Source of the DNA: a phage | Length of the DNA: 64,000 nucleotides | Reading direction: 5' to 3' (one strand) | Sequence record: PZ452589.1 | Shown: one piece after another, positions 3,369 to 64,000 of the stretch | Numbering within the stretch: the first letter of the stretch is position 1 | How the letters are laid out: each line of letters begins with the position of its first letter | The notes under the pieces: model-generated | The model's database searches: none | The model's input: the letters and a program-made list of their open reading frames with translations, nothing else | Told to the model about the DNA's origin: nothing | Position numbers and translations under genes: made by a program

Positions 3369-3601
3369 AGTACGCCATACACCCTTTGTGCTTCAACTAA
3401 TCCATCAAAATCCAATTTGAGATGTGTTATTTGGTCACCATCACCTGGATTCACAATTACTAATACCGAACGAGGAGTTTCGGTAATAACACGAACCGAC
3501 GTTTCAGGAAATCGTTCAGAAACCTTATTTACCAATTCTTGAGCAAATAGTTTAACTTTTTCTTGGAATTCTTTAACAGTAATTGGTTTTTCGCTTAGCA
3601 T
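3365..3601 (-). CDS. hypothetical protein, 78 aa (cd.x)
   Basis: tightly packed ORF, overlaps neighbours by 4-7 nt. Confidence 0.55.
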   Translation of the reverse strand: MLSEKPITVKEFQEKVKLFAQELVNKVSERFPETSVRVITETPRSVLVIVNPGDGDQITHLKLDFDGLVEAQRVYGVL

Positions 3602-4122
3602 GTTGATCCTAGCTCCTTACTTTCAACATTTTTAACTAATTTGACAGAAACTAATTCAGCATCTTGGGTAATCATTACCGGACCTTCTTCATGCTCTTCA
3701 AGATATTCTAGAGCTTTCTTTTTAGCTTCTTCCTTCGTATCAGTTTGAGCATAGATATAGAACATACAACCAGTAATACCTACTACTTTCCACTTAATTT
3801 CTTTATCAGTTTTAATTTCAAATTTACTTACAGAATCATCTTTTTGAACTTCTTCGAAAAAAGAATATTCTGACATATAAGCAATTGAAAATAACGGGCT
3901 AACTTTATAGGATTCACCCATTACATCAACAGCTTTATACCAACAATCATCAATTTCACGTTTAATGCTAATAACATTTTTCGCAGGATCTATTTTTACT
4001 TTAAATGAATTTTCCCCAATAAACTGGGCAATTCGTTTATTAGCCCCGCAAGTTTCATTAAAAATATCTTTATATCCAGCTTTAAAGCGATAAACCTTAT
4101 CTTCTTCAAACCATTCGCTCAT
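3595..4122 (-). CDS. hypothetical protein, 175 aa (cd.x)
   Basis: ORF; function unknown. Confidence 0.55.
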   Translation of the reverse strand: MSEWFEEDKVYRFKAGYKDIFNETCGANKRIAQFIGENSFKVKIDPAKNVISIKREIDDCWYKAVDVMGESYKVSPLFSIAYMSEYSFFEEVQKDDSVSKFEIKTDKEIKWKVVGITGCMFYIYAQTDTKEEAKKKALEYLEEHEEGPVMITQDAELVSVKLVKNVESKELGSTC

Positions 4123-4184
4123 TTCAATTTCCTCATTTGTTTTGGTAGAGCTATAATATCACAACTCTACCGTAAAGTAAACCA

Positions 4185-4490
4185 TTAAATCGCTTTGAAT
4201 TCCGCAGTTTGAGATTCAAAGCGAATGTCGCCTTTGATAACTAGCTCAGCATCAAGACCGAATACAACAATGATATGCGCGGAACCTGGATACAACGTAA
4301 TGGCAATAGAATCCACCTGGTCTGGAAGCAAAGTGTTCAATACATGAGTCACTTGAGCGTGGATTCGAAGCTCAGCTGCGTTATCAAGTTTTTCAAACAT
4401 ATTATTAGCGATAATTTGACTAAACACTACTTCTACGATTTTAGAGTAAGTCGGAAACATATTTACCTCACATAATTTTCTTCGAGCCAA
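4185..4490 (-). CDS. hypothetical protein, 101 aa (cd.x)
   Basis: ORF; start uncertain (internal Met possible). Confidence 0.5.
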   Translation of the reverse strand: MARRKLCEVNMFPTYSKIVEVVFSQIIANNMFEKLDNAAELRIHAQVTHVLNTLLPDQVDSIAITLYPGSAHIIVVFGLDAELVIKGDIRFESQTAEFKAI

Positions 4491-7510: not shown

Positions 7511-9098
<1,588 letters not shown>

Positions 9099-9104
9099 AA
9101 TAAA

Positions 9105-9122
9105 ATGGGCCTTGCGGCCCAC
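9105..9122 (-). promoter_or_regulatory. intercistronic GNRA hairpin between nrdB and denA
   Basis: minus-strand GGGCC-GCAA-GGCCC followed by AUUUUAUU, 2 nt before denA ATG. Confidence 0.4.
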
Positions 9123-9125
9123 TCC

Positions 9126-10304
9126 TTAAAAGTATTTTTTAAAACTCATCATAACTTTATCATCAACATCATTATCAATCTGTGCAACAAGATAAGATGA
9201 CAGTTCTACTTCTTGTGGCGCTGATTGAACATTATCAGAATTAAGATATTCACGAATCCAAGGATATGGATGTTTAACCGGAGCATCGGTAATTGGGCAT
9301 GGAAGACCACACTGTTTCATACGAGATACAGTTAAGTAATCAATAAAGCTCCACATGCTATTTGTATTTAATCCAGGAACATCGCCATCTTTAAATAAAT
9401 GAACTGCCCAATCTTTTTCTTGGCGGTTAACTTCCATGAAAATATCAACTGCTTCTTGTTCACACTCTTGAGCAATTTTAACCCATTCATCGCCGTCAGT
9501 GCCAAGTTGAAGTTGACGAATAATATATTGGGTGCCTTTAAGGTGAAGCTGCTCATCACGAGCAATAAATTTCATAATCTTCGCATTACCTTCCATGATT
9601 TCCATGTTCTTATGGAAGTTGAAAGTACATGCAAAGGATACATAAAAACGAATAGCTTCCAGAGCATTGATAACGTGCAGACAGAGATAAAGCGACTTCA
9701 TCAGGTCTCGTTTACATTCTTCCAAATGAGTGAGACTGTTTGAATATGCTTCTAAATCATATTCATTTTCAGCAAAATAACTAAAGTTTTCTTTGGCGTT
9801 TTCCCAAATACGTGTCTTGTCCAGAACATCATCATAATAACGACCAATAGATTCAGCACGTTTCATGATAGCTTTATCTAATACAATCTCATCAAATACC
9901 TTTGACGGATCAGCATAAAGATTTCGCATAATATGAGTGTATGAACGACTGTGAATAGTTTCACTAAAAGTCCATGTAGCAACCCATGTATCAAGGCTTG
10001 GGTCTGAAATCAATGACATAAGTACAGCAGACGGTGCACGACCCTGAATGCTATCTAGAAGTGATTGATACTTCAGGTTATTAGTAAAAATATCTTGCTG
10101 ATATTGAGGAAGCTTGTTAAATTGCGCAGCATCCATCATCAAGTTTACTTCTTCAGGACGCCAAAAAAATGATAAAGATTTCTCAATAAGTTCTTCAAAT
10201 ACTCTATGTCGTTGAATATCATATCGAGCTAAACCCAATCCAGAACCAAAAAACATCGGCTCAGTCAAAATATTAACAGGGGATGTATTAAAAACTGTAC
10301 TCAT
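9126..10304 (-). CDS. nrdB: ribonucleotide reductase small subunit, 392 aa, uninterrupted
   Basis: class Ia R2 sequence; single contiguous ORF (no group I intron). Confidence 0.9.
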   Translation of the reverse strand: MSTVFNTSPVNILTEPMFFGSGLGLARYDIQRHRVFEELIEKSLSFFWRPEEVNLMMDAAQFNKLPQYQQDIFTNNLKYQSLLDSIQGRAPSAVLMSLISDPSLDTWVATWTFSETIHSRSYTHIMRNLYADPSKVFDEIVLDKAIMKRAESIGRYYDDVLDKTRIWENAKENFSYFAENEYDLEAYSNSLTHLEECKRDLMKSLYLCLHVINALEAIRFYVSFACTFNFHKNMEIMEGNAKIMKFIARDEQLHLKGTQYIIRQLQLGTDGDEWVKIAQECEQEAVDIFMEVNRQEKDWAVHLFKDGDVPGLNTNSMWSFIDYLTVSRMKQCGLPCPITDAPVKHPYPWIREYLNSDNVQSAPQEVELSSYLVAQIDNDVDDKVMMSFKKYF

Positions 10305-10942
10305 TTAGAATCCTTAAATTTACATTTATCATAATGCCATCTTAAAGCATTGCCTTTATTAACTTTCTTGCCACAATGCGGACAAGGCGGATACTCTGTA
10401 CCTTGCTTAGTTCTCAAAGAAATCAAATCACGGGTTTCTTTAGTATGAGGAACATCTCTTGTCGGAGAGATTGTACCATACATCGGATTAAGCACGCCGA
10501 CTTTAGCAGCAGCTATATTCTTTTTAGCTTCTTCGGTTTTAGGTTTTCTCATGTGAGCTAAATGCTCTTTGGTAAATTTCCTTCCTTTAAGGGCTCTACT
10601 TATCTTTTCTCTGGTTTCTATAGAAACTTCACGTCCTATAGCAGCTTCAGATAAACGTCGTCTACCTAATTCGTACAGTTGAGAAGAAATTTTATATGAG
10701 CGATTTTTACCAGTCAAGCACATTAAACCAAAAGCTTTCTTTAATCCTGGGGTGTCATATATTTTACATAAAAGCCAATGAGCTATAAAATGCTCTCTAC
10801 CTGTTAATTCAACTAAATTTTCTTTATCATCAGAACCTCCCATACATCTAGGGATTATATGATGAGTCTCTTTATATCCTAATAAAGGTTCCCGGGTTTG
10901 AGCCCGGGAAATTAAACTATTATATACGTTTTGATAATTCAT
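10301..10942 (-). CDS. mobE: free-standing HNH homing endonuclease (mobE-like), 213 aa
   Basis: HHIIPRCMGGSDDKENLVELTGREHFIAH HNH motif; located between nrdA and nrdB as T4 mobE. Confidence 0.7.
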   Translation of the reverse strand: MNYQNVYNSLISRAQTREPLLGYKETHHIIPRCMGGSDDKENLVELTGREHFIAHWLLCKIYDTPGLKKAFGLMCLTGKNRSYKISSQLYELGRRRLSEAAIGREVSIETREKISRALKGRKFTKEHLAHMRKPKTEEAKKNIAAAKVGVLNPMYGTISPTRDVPHTKETRDLISLRTKQGTEYPPCPHCGKKVNKGNALRWHYDKCKFKDSK

Positions 10943-13206
10943 TACAATTTACACGCTGCGCAATCTTCAGCTTTTGGAGTTTCTATTTCATAATCATCAG
11001 TACCAGAACCATCACGGGTATTATGATAATAGAAATTTTTTCCGCCAAAATACCAAAAATACAAAAGGTCATCAATCATTATTGACATTGGAACCTTTCC
11101 TTTTGGAAAAATCTGCGGGTCATAATATGTATTCGCTGAAGCTGATTGACATACCCATTTCAGCATAATAGCTACCTGCGTAAGATAAGGTTTATTACCT
11201 TTCTTAGCTAATTTCCATGTATAATCATATAGGTCTATGTTATGTTCAATATTGGGCACGACTTGATTAAAGGAACCCTCTTTTGATTCTTTAACAGAGA
11301 CTGGTCCACGTGGAGGCTCGATACCGTTTGTACTGTTAGAAACTTGGGAAGATGACTCACATGGCATAAGTGCTGATAGTGTGCTATTACGGATGCCAAA
11401 GAGCTTAAGGTCTTCCCGCAGCGACGACCAGTCACAAACGTATTTTGGAGCTGCGATTTGGTCAATCTTTTTATTGTACCAGTCGATAGGTAATTCGCCT
11501 CGAGACCAACGAGTGTCTGAATAATATTCACAAGGTCCTTTTTCTTTGGCGAGCTTAATGGATGCTTTAATGAGTCCATACTGTAATCTCTCAAATAGTT
11601 CATGTGTTAAATCGTTAGCATCTTCATAAGAAGCAAAGTTACTTGCCAACCAAGCTGCATAGTTAGTAACACCTACACCGAGGTTACGACGCTTTTTAGC
11701 TTTTTCTGCTTCAGGAACTGGATATCCTTGGTAATCCAAAAGATTATCAAGAGCACGAACCTGGACTTCTGCCAATTCATTAATTTTATCTTGGTCTTGC
11801 CAGTCAAAATTATCCAGTACGAATGCAGAGAGAGTACACAATCCAATTTCAGCATCAGGACTATTCACATCATTTGTTGGAATAGCAATTTCACAGCACA
11901 AGTTACTCTGACGAATAGGTGCCTTTTCACGAATAAACGGAGTATAGTTATTCGTATTATCAATGAACTGTACATAAATCCTTGCTGTTCCTGAGCGTTC
12001 AGTCATGAGCAATTCAAATAGTTCACGGGCTTTAATACGCTTTTTACGAATATTAGGGTCTTTTTCTGCTGCTTCGTATAATTCACGGAAACGGTCTTGG
12101 TCTTTAAAATAAGAATAATAAAGCTCTCCGCCCATTTCATGGGGACTGAACAAAGTAATGTAATCGTTCTTTCCAAAACGTTCCATCATCAAATCATTCA
12201 GTTGAACACCATAATCCATATGACGAATGCGGTTTTCTTCTACGCCTTTGTTATTTTTCAAAACAAGAAGATTTTCAACTTCCAAATGCCAAATAGGATA
12301 ATAAGCAGTAGCAGCGCCGCCACGAATTCCACCCTGTGAGCATGATTTAACAGCAGTCTGAAAATGTTTCCAAAAAGGAATAACACCAGTATGGCGTACT
12401 TCACCCATGCCAATCTTAGAACCTTCAGCACGAATCATACCAACGTTAATACCAATTCCAGCGCGTTTAGAGATATATTCAACAATTGAAGCGGAAGCCT
12501 TATTGATAGACTTTAATGAATCACCTGCCTCAATAACAACGCATGAACTAAACTGCCGAGTTGGAGTACGGCAACCAGCCATAATAGGAGTTGGTAATGA
12601 AATCTGTCGAGTAGATACCGCTTCATAAAAACGGATAACATGTTTTAATCTATCAACAGGTTCATCTTGATGCAATGCCATTCCAATAGTCATAAATGCA
12701 AACTGTGGAGTTTCATAAATTTGACCAGTGGTTTTATCTTTAACTAGATATTTTTCTTTTAATTGCATCGCCCCGGAATAAGTAAATTCCATATCCCGCT
12801 CGTGCTTAATTTTTGATTCTAAAAATGTAATTTCTTCTGCTGAATATTTTGACAATAATTCAGGGTCATATTTACCTTCATTTACACAGTAAGAAATATG
12901 GTCAATAAATGAACGTGGTTCATACTGCCCATAAACATGCTTACGAAGAGCAAACATTAAACAGCGTGCAGCTACATATTGATAATCAGGTTCTTCAACC
13001 GAAATAGAATTCGCAGCGGCCTTAATGACAATAGTCTGAATATCATCAGTTGTCATTCCATCACGGAGATAAGATTTAATATTTTCATATAATTCATAAG
13101 GATCTACTGATGTTCCTTCAGCTGCCCAAGATAAAACTTTAATAATTTTTTGTGGGTCAAAGCTCTGAGAAACACCACTACTTTTGATAACATTAATTAA
13201 TTGCAT
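10942..13206 (-). CDS. nrdA: ribonucleotide reductase large subunit, 754 aa
   Basis: class Ia R1 sequence; length equals T4 NrdA. Confidence 0.92.
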   Translation of the reverse strand: MQLINVIKSSGVSQSFDPQKIIKVLSWAAEGTSVDPYELYENIKSYLRDGMTTDDIQTIVIKAAANSISVEEPDYQYVAARCLMFALRKHVYGQYEPRSFIDHISYCVNEGKYDPELLSKYSAEEITFLESKIKHERDMEFTYSGAMQLKEKYLVKDKTTGQIYETPQFAFMTIGMALHQDEPVDRLKHVIRFYEAVSTRQISLPTPIMAGCRTPTRQFSSCVVIEAGDSLKSINKASASIVEYISKRAGIGINVGMIRAEGSKIGMGEVRHTGVIPFWKHFQTAVKSCSQGGIRGGAATAYYPIWHLEVENLLVLKNNKGVEENRIRHMDYGVQLNDLMMERFGKNDYITLFSPHEMGGELYYSYFKDQDRFRELYEAAEKDPNIRKKRIKARELFELLMTERSGTARIYVQFIDNTNNYTPFIREKAPIRQSNLCCEIAIPTNDVNSPDAEIGLCTLSAFVLDNFDWQDQDKINELAEVQVRALDNLLDYQGYPVPEAEKAKKRRNLGVGVTNYAAWLASNFASYEDANDLTHELFERLQYGLIKASIKLAKEKGPCEYYSDTRWSRGELPIDWYNKKIDQIAAPKYVCDWSSLREDLKLFGIRNSTLSALMPCESSSQVSNSTNGIEPPRGPVSVKESKEGSFNQVVPNIEHNIDLYDYTWKLAKKGNKPYLTQVAIMLKWVCQSASANTYYDPQIFPKGKVPMSIMIDDLLYFWYFGGKNFYYHNTRDGSGTDDYEIETPKAEDCAACKL

Positions 13207-60856: not shown

Positions 60857-61219
60857 TTAAAAGAATTTAAACTTTTTCTTTGACCTTTTATTAAATGCAT
60901 CTTGTAGTTGCATTGTAATACATTTTTCTACATGAGGAGCTAACTCAGCTTTTCTTTCTTGGTCAAGAACAGCAAAGTCCATTACAACCTTTCCATCAAC
61001 CCAATCCAGTTTAGTTACATACACTATATGTGTAGAACCATCTTCTAGTTTAATGACAATCTCCTGGATAACATTTTCCATGGCAGATTTAATTATCTTA
61101 AGAGATTCATTAAAAAGACGTTCTTTTCTTTCTTCTTCCCCCTCCGAAGAGGGGGATTCATCGATAATTTCTAGATCTAAATCTAAATCATCTTTATTCA
61201 TTAAATTCTTCCATATCAC
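60857..61219 (-). CDS. 40: gp40 head vertex assembly chaperone, ~114-120 aa
   Basis: small ORF between uvsX and 41 as in T4; assignment by position. Confidence 0.6.
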   Translation of the reverse strand: MIWKNLMNKDDLDLDLEIIDESPSSEGEEERKERLFNESLKIIKSAMENVIQEIVIKLEDGSTHIVYVTKLDWVDGKVVMDFAVLDQERKAELAPHVEKCITMQLQDAFNKRSKKKFKFF

Positions 61220-62375
61220 TTAACTGCTCGAGGTCAGTTTCTAAATCAGCAGCTGATTTACTTTTACTTTCTGGAGATTTAAATTTTTCAACCTTTGAGT
61301 TAATCAATTCATCAACTTCAGCTTCAACAATTTCATTACTATCAATAGCACCTAACTGATAAGCACGTTTAATAGCATCTCGGAATGGTTGATGCTTAAA
61401 TAAAGGACCCCAGAATGTAGTGCAGTTGGTATCTTTTGCACGCCAAGATTTTTCTTCGCGAATCATCTCACCGGTTTCTTCATCAAGAAATTCACGGGCA
61501 TACCAGCCATTTTTAGGTTTTACTACAAATCCTAATTCTAGAGCCATATCTAACAATCCAGAATAAGGATCGATACCACCGTCAAATTTAACATCAATAA
61601 AGAATTTACTTTTTTCTTTAACGGTACGAGATTTTTCTACATTTAGAACAAATTGATACCCCTGAAGATCAGAACCATCTTTAATTTGACGTTTACCGAT
61701 AATGAATACAGTATCAGCCGAATACATTACGCCTGTACCGCCTGTCATCACGGTTTTACTAAACATTTCAATTGTTTCAATTGTATGGTTAACCGCAACG
61801 CACGGAATATTTTTAATGCTAAAGTAAGGAGTAACAATACGGAATAATGACTTCAGTGATTTAGCACGAGTCATATCTGCCACAGATTTTTCATTCAAGG
61901 CATCTTCCGTTTCTTTCTTAGAAGCCATATTACCAATTGAGTCGATGAATACTATAACCTTTTCACCACGCTCAATAGCTTCAAGCTGATTCACCATATC
62001 AATTTTCAGCTGTTCAACTGATTGAATTGGCGTATGAATTACACGTTCCGGGTCAACTCCCATGGATCGCAAATAAGCTGGAGTAATACCAAATTCGCTA
62101 TCATAGAATAGACAAACCGCGTCAGGATATTTGTTCAAATATGCCGCAACCATAGTCAAAGACATATTTGATTTAAAGTGTTTAGAAGGCCCTGCAAAAA
62201 TAGTTAAACCAGACTGCATACCGCCATCAATCGCACCAGAAATAGCGATATTAAGCATTGGAATTTTTGTACGAATTACATCCTTTTCATTAAAGAATTT
62301 AGATGTAGTCAGCTCAGCAGTCATTTTAGAAGTGGAAGCTTTAATCAAACGGGATTTTAAATCTGCAATAGACAT
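61194..62375 (-). CDS. uvsX: UvsX recombinase (RecA-like), 393 aa
   Basis: MSIADLKSRLIKASTSK.. Walker A ..AGPSKHFKS..; matches remembered T4 UvsX. Confidence 0.92.
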   Translation of the reverse strand: MSIADLKSRLIKASTSKMTAELTTSKFFNEKDVIRTKIPMLNIAISGAIDGGMQSGLTIFAGPSKHFKSNMSLTMVAAYLNKYPDAVCLFYDSEFGITPAYLRSMGVDPERVIHTPIQSVEQLKIDMVNQLEAIERGEKVIVFIDSIGNMASKKETEDALNEKSVADMTRAKSLKSLFRIVTPYFSIKNIPCVAVNHTIETIEMFSKTVMTGGTGVMYSADTVFIIGKRQIKDGSDLQGYQFVLNVEKSRTVKEKSKFFIDVKFDGGIDPYSGLLDMALELGFVVKPKNGWYAREFLDEETGEMIREEKSWRAKDTNCTTFWGPLFKHQPFRDAIKRAYQLGAIDSNEIVEAEVDELINSKVEKFKSPESKSKSAADLETDLEQLSDMEEFNE

Positions 62376-62452
62376 TCATTTTTTCCATAGGCATCATTAT
62401 ATTTTCCTCACTGGTTAAAGATAGAGTAATTATAACACAATAAATTTAGGCA

Positions 62453-63301
62453 TTAATCAACTGCTATTGGATGAATAGCATTAAACTTATGAAATGCTTC
62501 TGATTTTTCTTTACGTGAAACGCACATGCGAAGAACCTTTAATGGTTCGTCTTCTTCACCCAACGATTTTCGTTTTTCAATATTAGAAGTTTTCCAACGA
62601 GCTTGCTCTGGAAACTCTCTATTGATTTGCTCAAGCGCTCTATTATGTTTAGAATTACTACGAATTGAACTGCACCCGCCAGGAGCTTGTGCTTTTCCAG
62701 ATACAACCAGATATTTGAACAAGGCCAAATGCGGATAACCTTGATTAATTAAATTGAGAAATGCATACATATCTTCGCACAAATCAATTTTTCCATACCC
62801 AATTTGTTCTGTCGTAAGTTTTCCGAGGTCATACCATGTATTCGTGAATCCATATGAATTTTCACGATAATTACCCCAAGATGAAGTAATTTTAAAAATA
62901 GGTAGACGAGCATGGCCATGATAATACCCGCAATCCATGGCATCCTCAACATATTGAATCAATTCATAGAACTGTTCACGAGTCAATTGATTGACTTTAT
63001 CTACGCAACGACGATCATCTCTTTTTCGCATTGAACTCATACGAATAGTAGTATCATCGTCAATCATCCAGATTCGTTGACCTGCATATATATCGGTAAT
63101 TGCTTTACGAGTACCGGCAATTCCGTTTACATCATCAGGAATAGTTATAATTTTAGCTCTAGACCCATAAGCGTCATGATAAGCTTTTTCTTCATGTTCA
63201 CGCACTACAATATGCGGTTCATAATCAGTCGGAAACATATCAAGGGCAGAAACTGCCCTGACACGCTGATAACTTGGAATTACGAATTGAATCATTTCCA
63301 C
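62453..63301 (-). CDS. GT-A-fold glycosyltransferase, 282 aa, in the bgt position
   Basis: VIPSYQR and IWMIDDDTT (DxD) motifs; T4 has a 351-aa GT-B beta-glucosyltransferase here, so probably a T2/T6-type HMC-DNA glycosyltransferase. Confidence 0.6.
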   Translation of the reverse strand: MEMIQFVIPSYQRVRAVSALDMFPTDYEPHIVVREHEEKAYHDAYGSRAKIITIPDDVNGIAGTRKAITDIYAGQRIWMIDDDTTIRMSSMRKRDDRRCVDKVNQLTREQFYELIQYVEDAMDCGYYHGHARLPIFKITSSWGNYRENSYGFTNTWYDLGKLTTEQIGYGKIDLCEDMYAFLNLINQGYPHLALFKYLVVSGKAQAPGGCSSIRSNSKHNRALEQINREFPEQARWKTSNIEKRKSLGEEDEPLKVLRMCVSRKEKSEAFHKFNAIHPIAVD

Positions 63302-64000
63302 TCACCTTTATAGTCTTTTTTCACAATATGAGTTTCGCCAGTATTCCACCAATGATCAACCAAGTAAAAATGACGAGAATATACATGAAGACTTCCGACA
63401 TTCCATATAATAGAACCTGCTTTATACTGACGAGATGAATCGCCGGCATTCAAATCAGATACTAATTTATCTAATACGTATTTTTGCCATGCATAATCAT
63501 TACGGAATCCGAAGACCACGTCATTTGAGCGCATGCTTACTACTGCATTGACTTTCTTATCACGAATCAGGTACTGTACTGTATTAGTACACATGAAATC
63601 TGACATACCATCTTTATTGTAGTCAAATTGCATGGATGGACGAGTATAAATCATGATACCACGTCGAGAATCAGGATTTTGACCAAGTTCAGCTAAACAC
63701 ATATCATACTGGGCATAGTTATCTTCTGACCAAATAGCCCAACCATAATTCGAGTTAATTTCGCCTTTAGAAGATGCTACCTGCTGCCAAATCTTTGGTG
63801 TTTCACCTGGAATATCTTTAACAAACAAGCTCTTAGATTTATACCATTCAAGTTCACGTTGAATGTATTCATCATTAAGAGCGCCAAAAATAAACGGTTC
63901 ATCTGCTACAAATGATGCGCCAATAATTTCAATAGTTTTAACACCAGTTTTATCAACTACGAAATCTTTTTCTTTTAATGCAAGCCCCAAATGAAGACGG
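63292..64000 (-). CDS. 42: dCMP hydroxymethylase gp42, C-terminal ~235 codons (5' end beyond window)
   Basis: ..LHLGLALKEKDFVVDKTGVKTIEIIGASF.. matches remembered T4 gp42; reading frame stays open to the window edge. Confidence 0.85.
   Translation of the reverse strand, partial: RLHLGLALKEKDFVVDKTGVKTIEIIGASFVADEPFIFGALNDEYIQRELEWYKSKSLFVKDIPGETPKIWQQVASSKGEINSNYGWAIWSEDNYAQYDMCLAELGQNPDSRRGIMIYTRPSMQFDYNKDGMSDFMCTNTVQYLIRDKKVNAVVSMRSNDVVFGFRNDYAWQKYVLDKLVSDLNAGDSSRQYKAGSIIWNVGSLHVYSRHFYLVDHWWNTGETHIVKKDYKGEWK

Follow-up and report, generated by a model that had tools for sequence, protein, structure and literature searches.

What occupies the slot between uvsX and gene 42 in this phage, where T4 carries its beta-glucosyltransferase, and which sugar would the product add to the phage DNA? 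The gene found in this slot in T2 and T6, ba-gt, sets the sugar decoration of the DNA and thereby decides which host defences see it. We analyzed the 64,000-nt stretch of record PZ452589.1 that contains the locus (hereafter the window, meaning the whole stretch). The original prediction was that a GT-A glycosyltransferase stands here in place of the T4-type enzyme, with a different glucosylation pattern of hydroxymethylcytosine (hmC) and different sensitivity to restriction as consequences. We consider it very likely that the gene is a T2/T6-type ba-gt (also called g-gt or TAGT), whose product would make alpha-gentiobiosyl-hmC after an alpha-glucosyltransferase has acted, with a T6-like pattern expected. 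The resemblance is more than chance, because PHROG 842, the Pfam TAGT family and 475 phage records all match.

An uninterrupted open reading frame (ORF) spans 62453..63301 on the minus strand in the mechanical ORF list, flanked by uvsX and by the 3' part of gene 42. The local gene order, all on the minus strand, is 41, 40, uvsX, ba-gt/TAGT, 42, as it is in RB51, T2 and T6. Read from a GTG codon, the frame gives the 282 residues originally proposed; the frame is real, but translation almost certainly begins two codons further in, at the ATG at 63295, which would make the protein 280 residues long. This ATG is preferred because it overlaps the gene 42 stop codon and agrees both with the N-termini of homologs and with the annotations of relatives. 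Of the 11 homologs collected, nine are full-length, and these were aligned with the window protein (alignment A1); the N-terminus M(xx)IQFVIPSY is common to all full-length homologs. The annotated coding sequence is 843 nt long and overlaps gene 42 by the same 4 nt in each of RB51, T2, TB37, Some, CP, Geo and SfPhi01. The GTG at 63301 was rejected as a start on the homolog N-termini and these annotations. The features of the locus are the following.

62453..63295, minus strand: coding sequence of ba-gt/g-gt/TAGT, very probably a beta-glucosyl-HMC-alpha-glucosyltransferase; 280 codons plus a TAA stop (T2 98%, teqdroes 100%, PHROG 842, PF20691).
63292..63295, minus strand: ATGA overlap of the ba-gt ATG start with the gene 42 TGA stop; the minus-strand sequence reads ...GGTGAGTGGAAATGATTCAATT.
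63296..63301, minus strand: two extra in-frame codons, GTG GAA, part of the mechanical ORF and, judging by the homolog N-termini, probably untranslated as part of the ba-gt protein.
63263..63280, minus strand: IPSYQR motif, residues 6-11 (alignment A1; strand E3-7 of the model, pLDDT ~89).
63053..63061, minus strand: DDD triad, residues 79-81, the putative DxD motif for metal and UDP-sugar binding (invariance, model topology, GT-A matches).
62771..62776, minus strand: E174-D175 ('CED'), candidate catalytic base region (conservation, analogy with GT2 enzymes).
62376..62452, minus strand: 77-nt spacer from the ba-gt stop to the uvsX start (ORF positions; segA absent).
63292..64000, minus strand: 3' portion of gene 42 (dCMP hydroxymethylase), cut by the window end (ORF; annotated as 42 in RB51, T4 and T6).
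61194..62375, minus strand: uvsX recombinase, whose place downstream marks the syntenic slot (ORF; annotation in relatives).

The identity, family, fold, motif conservation and synteny of the gene were all established directly in this analysis. PHROG 842 ('beta-glucosyl-HMC-alpha-glucosyltransferase') was matched over residues 2-277 with E=3.5e-88. A Pfam scan of the protein returned TAGT only (TET-associated glycosyltransferase, PF20691), covering profile positions 2-205 of 205 at 42.6 bits (E=8.8e-11), with a curated gathering threshold of 27.5 bits. NCBIfam and PADLOC yielded no matches for the protein and were uninformative. Direct comparison with the T2 enzyme gave 275/280 identical residues (98.2%), allele comparison with that of T6 gave ~98% identity, and the RB51 record itself remarks of its copy that it is 'similar to T2, T6 b-gluc-a-gluc transferases'. 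The gene also lies between gene 42 and uvsX in a Tequatrovirus-type segment, as a T2/T6 ba-gt does. Run against the T2 and T6 beta-glucosyl-HMC-alpha-glucosyltransferases, the comparison called for by the original prediction thus supports its T2/T6-type reading, together with PHROG 842 and PF20691.

The same gene is widespread. Megablast found 475 phage records carrying it whole, in the same slot, at ≥90% nucleotide identity, and tblastn matched 689 records at the protein level, among them phage teqdroes, which encodes a 100% identical protein. A second tier of tblastn matches, at ~64% identity, comes from T4-like phages of Klebsiella and Enterobacter. PF20691 members from T4-like phages of Klebsiella, Enterobacter and Serratia share the family and the motifs and often stand beside a dCMP hydroxymethylase gene, but are more divergent (47-65% identity). 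Some members of the family pair with a beta-glucosyltransferase or stand without any alpha- or beta-glucosyltransferase (PMC13216743), and their acceptors may differ. Nothing here is scientifically new: earlier work already covers the gene, where it lies, which fold class it belongs to and what it makes.

How does this protein relate to the enzyme that T4 encodes at the same place? Homology to T4 Bgt would have counted against the original prediction, and we detected none: with the 351-residue T4 protein (from NC_000866) as reference, the best BLASTP segment covers 8 residues at E=2.3. T4 Bgt, RB51 Agt and the window protein fall into three separate Pfam families (PF09198, PF11440 and PF20691, respectively). 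Between 42 and uvsX, T4 carries the 351-aa b-gt and the homing endonuclease gene segA; the window has only the TAGT gene and the 77-nt spacer there. The two enzymes have in common the slot, UDP-glucose as donor, a beta linkage and the decoration of hmC DNA after replication. They differ in Pfam family, in fold (GT-B in T4 versus GT-A here, as also described in PMC13216743), in the lack of any sequence similarity, in length (351 aa with segA alongside versus 280 aa) and in acceptor, which is bare hmC for T4 Bgt and would be alpha-glucosyl-hmC for the enzyme of the window type. The ORFs and the T4 annotation thus confirm the predicted location in the T4 b-gt slot. To say that the gene replaces Bgt is right as to the slot but apt only from a T4-centric view, T4 being the exception. 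As a separate observation, the GIY-YIG gene segA, which lies between b-gt and uvsX in T4 (3563-4400 compared), is absent from the window and likewise from T2, T6 and RB51.

We then turn to the fold, for which the evidence comes from a predicted model, because no solved structure matched by sequence search at E≤1. The model has a mean pLDDT of 73 and a pTM of 0.75, with values mostly of 76-95 over the N-terminal 120 residues and below 50 at residues 125-138 and 203-211, which are poorly defined. Its topology runs beta1 (3-7), helix, beta2 (28-32), helix, beta3 (48-52), helix, beta4 (74-77), directly followed by D79-D80-D81. A DxD motif after the fourth strand is the canonical GT-A arrangement. 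Foldseek matched the model to WrtF, AvpGT, RmlT, TarS, TarP and K4CP (E ~3e-4 to 1e-3), and the listed matches were all of GT-A or nucleotidyltransferase fold, with no GT-B enzyme among them. Most of these neighbours belong to the inverting GT2 family, which fits an enzyme that makes a beta linkage from UDP-alpha-glucose. The model thus predicts a GT-A/GT2-like fold with a single Rossmann-like alpha/beta/alpha nucleotide-binding domain, whose closest neighbours are GT-A enzymes, rather than the two-domain GT-B fold.

The motifs on which the GT-A/GT2-like class had been proposed are both present, VIPSYQR at residues 5-11 and IWMIDDDTT at residues 75-83 in the 280-aa numbering, and the class itself is borne out by the structural matches and the conserved DxD. 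No substitution of I6, P7, S8, Y9, R11, D79, D80, D81 or D175 occurs among the aligned homologs, which reach down to 32% identity, and E174 is nearly invariant. In the model, IPSYQR makes up beta-strand 1 and the loop after it, within the nucleotide-binding half. D175, in its 'CED' context, would by comparison with GT2 enzymes be a plausible catalytic base for an inverting GT-A reaction. For the T6 TAGT, a published AlphaFold3 model likewise shows a GT-A fold and clusters as sister to GT2, and the alpha- and beta-glucosyltransferases are GT-B (PMC13216743).

The pathway that we propose would begin with the dCMP hydroxymethylase of gene 42, immediately upstream, which would make the hm-dCMP that is incorporated into phage DNA. 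A phage alpha-glucosyltransferase encoded outside the window would put an alpha-linked glucose on hmC, and the TAGT, as a DxD-dependent, inverting GT-A enzyme, would transfer a second glucose from UDP-glucose onto this alpha-glucose in a beta-1,6 linkage, yielding alpha-gentiobiosyl-hmC. Through the ATGA start/stop overlap, ba-gt would be expressed together with gene 42; the overlap suggests co-transcription and translational coupling of the two genes. We limit regulatory claims to this overlap because a promoter and terminator scan of 62000-64000 gave counts at shuffled expectation (10 vs 8.8; 2 vs 1.0).

Where would the partner enzyme be encoded? No Agt or Bgt was found in the 64-kb window by tblastn (all E>1). 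The close relatives RB51, T6, Geo and SfPhi01 carry a-gt ~12 kb from gene 42 on its far side, a position that would fall outside the window, and we therefore expect an a-gt partner elsewhere in this genome. A second TAGT/Bgt/Agt-like gene in the window was considered and rejected, its sole weak match (E=0.13, 9393-9815) lying inside nrdB and being due to chance.

The chemistry of the enzyme and its consequences for defence would carry over from published orthologs. T2 and T6 are devoid of b-gt, and their ba-gt adds a beta-1,6 glucose to alpha-glucosyl-hmC to form gentiobiosyl-hmC, which accounts for ~5% in T2 and ~72% in T6, with ~25% bare hmC in both (PMC11078745, PMC6024577, 10.64898/2026.02.25.707755, PMC13216743). 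When T6 is deprived of ba-gt/g-gt, its DNA behaves as alpha-glucosyl-hmC DNA (PMC11078745; 10.64898/2026.02.25.707755), the papers putting the alpha-glucosyl-hmC share at ~75%, in PMC11078745 as a presumption. Ten Tequatrovirus phages from Durham contained alpha-gentiobiosyl-hmdC and no beta-glucosyl-hmdC by HPLC/MS, and the authors name a TAGT 'at the position syntenic with' the T4 beta-glucosyltransferase as the source of the second glucose (PMC13390438). Three of them, TB37, Some and CP, encode enzymes 98.6-98.9% identical to the window protein by tblastn, in identical synteny and with 3-4 substitutions (G13R, M69I, H40Y, etc.). Their DNA holds ~1/3 5hmdC and ~2/3 alpha-gentiobiosyl-hmdC, with alpha-glucosyl-hmdC at background only (PMC13390438).

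These data bear on whether the enzyme could instead act first, as a primary hmC glucosyltransferase that takes over the function of T4 Bgt and places the first glucose on bare hmC with a different fold. The gene does occupy the exact T4 b-gt slot, 288 of 753 phage genomes carry a solitary TAGT with no alpha- or beta-glucosyltransferase (PMC13216743), and some distant members of the family might act on other acceptors. However, the phages with the 98.6-98.9% identical enzymes have no beta-glucosyl-hmC and leave about a third of their hmC unmodified (PMC13390438), the behaviour of T6 without ba-gt places the enzyme after the alpha-glucosyltransferase, and all close relatives carry a-gt. We therefore regard such a first-step role as very improbable.

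Transfer of another sugar, or through a linkage other than beta-1,6, comparable to what the second arabinosyltransferase of Mosigvirus does, appears more improbable still. Sugar and linkage specificity are unreadable from sequence, and related phage lineages do add other disaccharides, such as the arabinobiose of Mosigvirus (PMC13390438). Yet the T2 enzyme, 98% identical to the window protein, yields gentiobiosyl-hmC, and so do the TB37, Some and CP phages, in which alpha-gentiobiosyl-hmdC was identified by HPLC/MS (PMC13390438).

For the gentiobiosyl-forming enzyme, how much product should be expected? The T2 ba-gt (UniProt Q06717 per PMC6024577) resembles the window gene in its 280 residues, its position between 42 and uvsX, its ATGA overlap and its Pfam family. 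It differs from it by R11H, at an otherwise invariant arginine, and by P251S, in a phage whose DNA is ~5% gentiobiosylated; the window allele keeps R11 and in addition differs from T2 by G13R, Y40H and M69I. The T6 ba-gt/g-gt, from the classic high-gentiobiosyl phage, shares the slot. Allele comparison shows that the window protein has R11 in common with T6 and all measured high-gentiobiosyl phages, T2 alone having H11 and S251. The window allele is intact at 40/40 invariant columns of the alignment. Because it keeps every invariant residue, R11 included, we expect a T6-like or TB37-like pattern, which by analogy would comprise ~2/3 gentiobiosyl-hmC, ~1/4-1/3 bare hmC, little alpha-glucosyl-hmC and no beta-glucosyl-hmC.

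This quantitative prediction is soft, because the gentiobiosyl share varies among very similar enzymes, from 5% in T2 through ~40% in the Geo group to ~67-72% in T6 and the TB37 group. In the Geo group, whose enzyme is equally intact, hmC, alpha-glucosyl-hmC and gentiobiosyl-hmC stand at ~1:2:2 (PMC13390438). The gentiobiosyl-hmC pattern originally put forward is thus supported through the near-identical orthologs (PMC13390438), and the amounts remain a soft estimate.

The same spread invites the reading that the window allele has little or no activity, at the T2 level or below, leaving DNA that is mostly mono-alpha-glucosylated with little gentiobiose. Near-identical enzymes do differ greatly between T2 and T6 (PMC11078745, PMC6024577), lab-stock records carry lesions at invariant sites (R11H in T2, Q10amber and an Asp loss in T6), and the G13R of the window allele adjoins the IPSYxR motif. 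But no T2 or T6 lesion is present in the window copy, whose 40 invariant columns are all intact, and position 13 varies among homologs (G, D, E or R in the alignment). G13R is common to the window and RB51, M69I to the window and teqdroes, and the occurrence of G13R in RB51 and of the identical protein in teqdroes is as expected if nature maintains the allele. We thus consider a weak or inactive allele unlikely and retain the T6-like expectation.

The stock records deserve a description of their own, concerning as they do public records rather than the window. The two independent T2 records, PV648363 (3001-3843) and AP018813 (7283-8125), encode identical ba-gt proteins with R11H and P251S. In the GenBank/RefSeq-source T6 record MH550421 (22137-22979, minus strand), codon 10 of ba-gt/ggt is an amber TAG where the window has CAG, and beta-strand 1 would be missing, along with the invariant IPSYxR, from the annotated product of 261 aa from Met20, which is odd for the classic high-gentiobiosyl phage. 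An independent T6 record, AP018814 (22134-22973, minus strand), has CAG at codon 10 but has lost one Asp of the triad in frame (DDD to DD), reading IWMIDDTT in a protein of 279 aa. The window copy has neither lesion. The differing lesions of the two T6 records could reflect stock drift, selection or sequencing error. A RefSeq T6 TAGT entry, YP_010067197.1, served as query in a published survey (PMC13216743), and the amber codon matters if that entry derives from MH550421.

On sequence grounds, R11H may explain the difference between the ~5% gentiobiosylation of T2 and the ~72% of T6. Relaxed or negative selection on gentiobiosylation in the laboratory is suggested because T2 and T6 stocks have each changed at an invariant position. 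The wider idea, that the window carries a fully conserved, 'high-activity' ba-gt allele, that R11H explains the T2/T6 gap, that lab stocks are under relaxed or negative selection and that wild Tequatroviruses, this phage included, keep an ancestral, heavily gentiobiosylated state, is one that we hold as speculative and rather doubtful.

How usual is this arrangement? The window is an ordinary Tequatrovirus segment: three overlapping queries of 24-25 kb found it covered to 95-100% at 96-97% identity by phages that include SfPhi01, ES19/21, G2540 and wV7. The possibility that it comes from an unusual phage was rejected, since many Tequatrovirus genomes cover it at this identity. The combination of a-gt and ba-gt without b-gt is reported for RB3, 5, 6, 7, 9, 10, 14, 27, 32, 33, 51 and 68, and the only T4-like exceptions are RB55 and RB59 (PMC6024577, Table 1). 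Alpha- and beta-glucosyltransferases occur together in only 6 of 753 genomes (PMC13216743). Because that pairing is rare and a-gt with ba-gt is widespread, the window represents the usual, majority state among T4-like coliphages and T4 the exception. A 2026 paper already sets the GT-A and GT-B enzymes apart and describes alpha-glucosyltransferase with TAGT as common and T4 as the exception.

For host defence, gentiobiosylation of hmC makes DNA resistant in vitro to Brig1, the alpha-glucosyl-hmC glycosylase, and T6 deleted for ba-gt is more sensitive to Brig1, which degrades its DNA in vitro (PMC11078745). Similarly, BapA, a deglucosylase working with Brig3, acts on g-gt-deleted T6 DNA but not on that of wild-type T6 (10.64898/2026.02.25.707755). 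Both glucosyl stereoisomers, and gentiobiosyl-hmC as well, are reported targets of GmrSD (PMC13216743), and BrxU cleaved every modification tested (PMC13390438). The altered sensitivity that had been predicted thus finds support for Brig1 in vitro and for BapA, the partner of Brig3, but none for the type IV enzymes examined, GmrSD and BrxU. In practice, for phage therapy or defence-system screens, the phage would be best treated as T6-like, not T4-like.

Several minor features accompany the locus. A search of the entire window (1-64000) with ARAGORN returned no tRNA genes; the T4-type tRNA cluster presumably sits in another part of the genome. On the minus strand, the 77-nt spacer upstream of uvsX reads ATGCCTAAATTTATTGTGTTATAAT. 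By eye, it contains a TGnTATAAT-like extended -10 element, unflagged by the generic promoter scan, and ~11 nt upstream of it a TGCCTAA that resembles the T4 MotA box (TGCTTtA); these elements may form a middle promoter for uvsX.

Between nrdA (10942-13206) and nrdB (9126-10304), a 213-aa ORF (10301-10942, minus strand) has an HNH-like 'HHIIPRCMGG' and weakly resembles the C-terminal part of T4 SegA by tblastn (E=0.001). As in T4, the gene at this place probably encodes a homing endonuclease of the mobE kind. Immediately downstream of nrdB, a 144-aa ORF (8688-9122, minus strand) with a GIY-YIG-like motif probably encodes a homing endonuclease, either truncated or of a small seg type.
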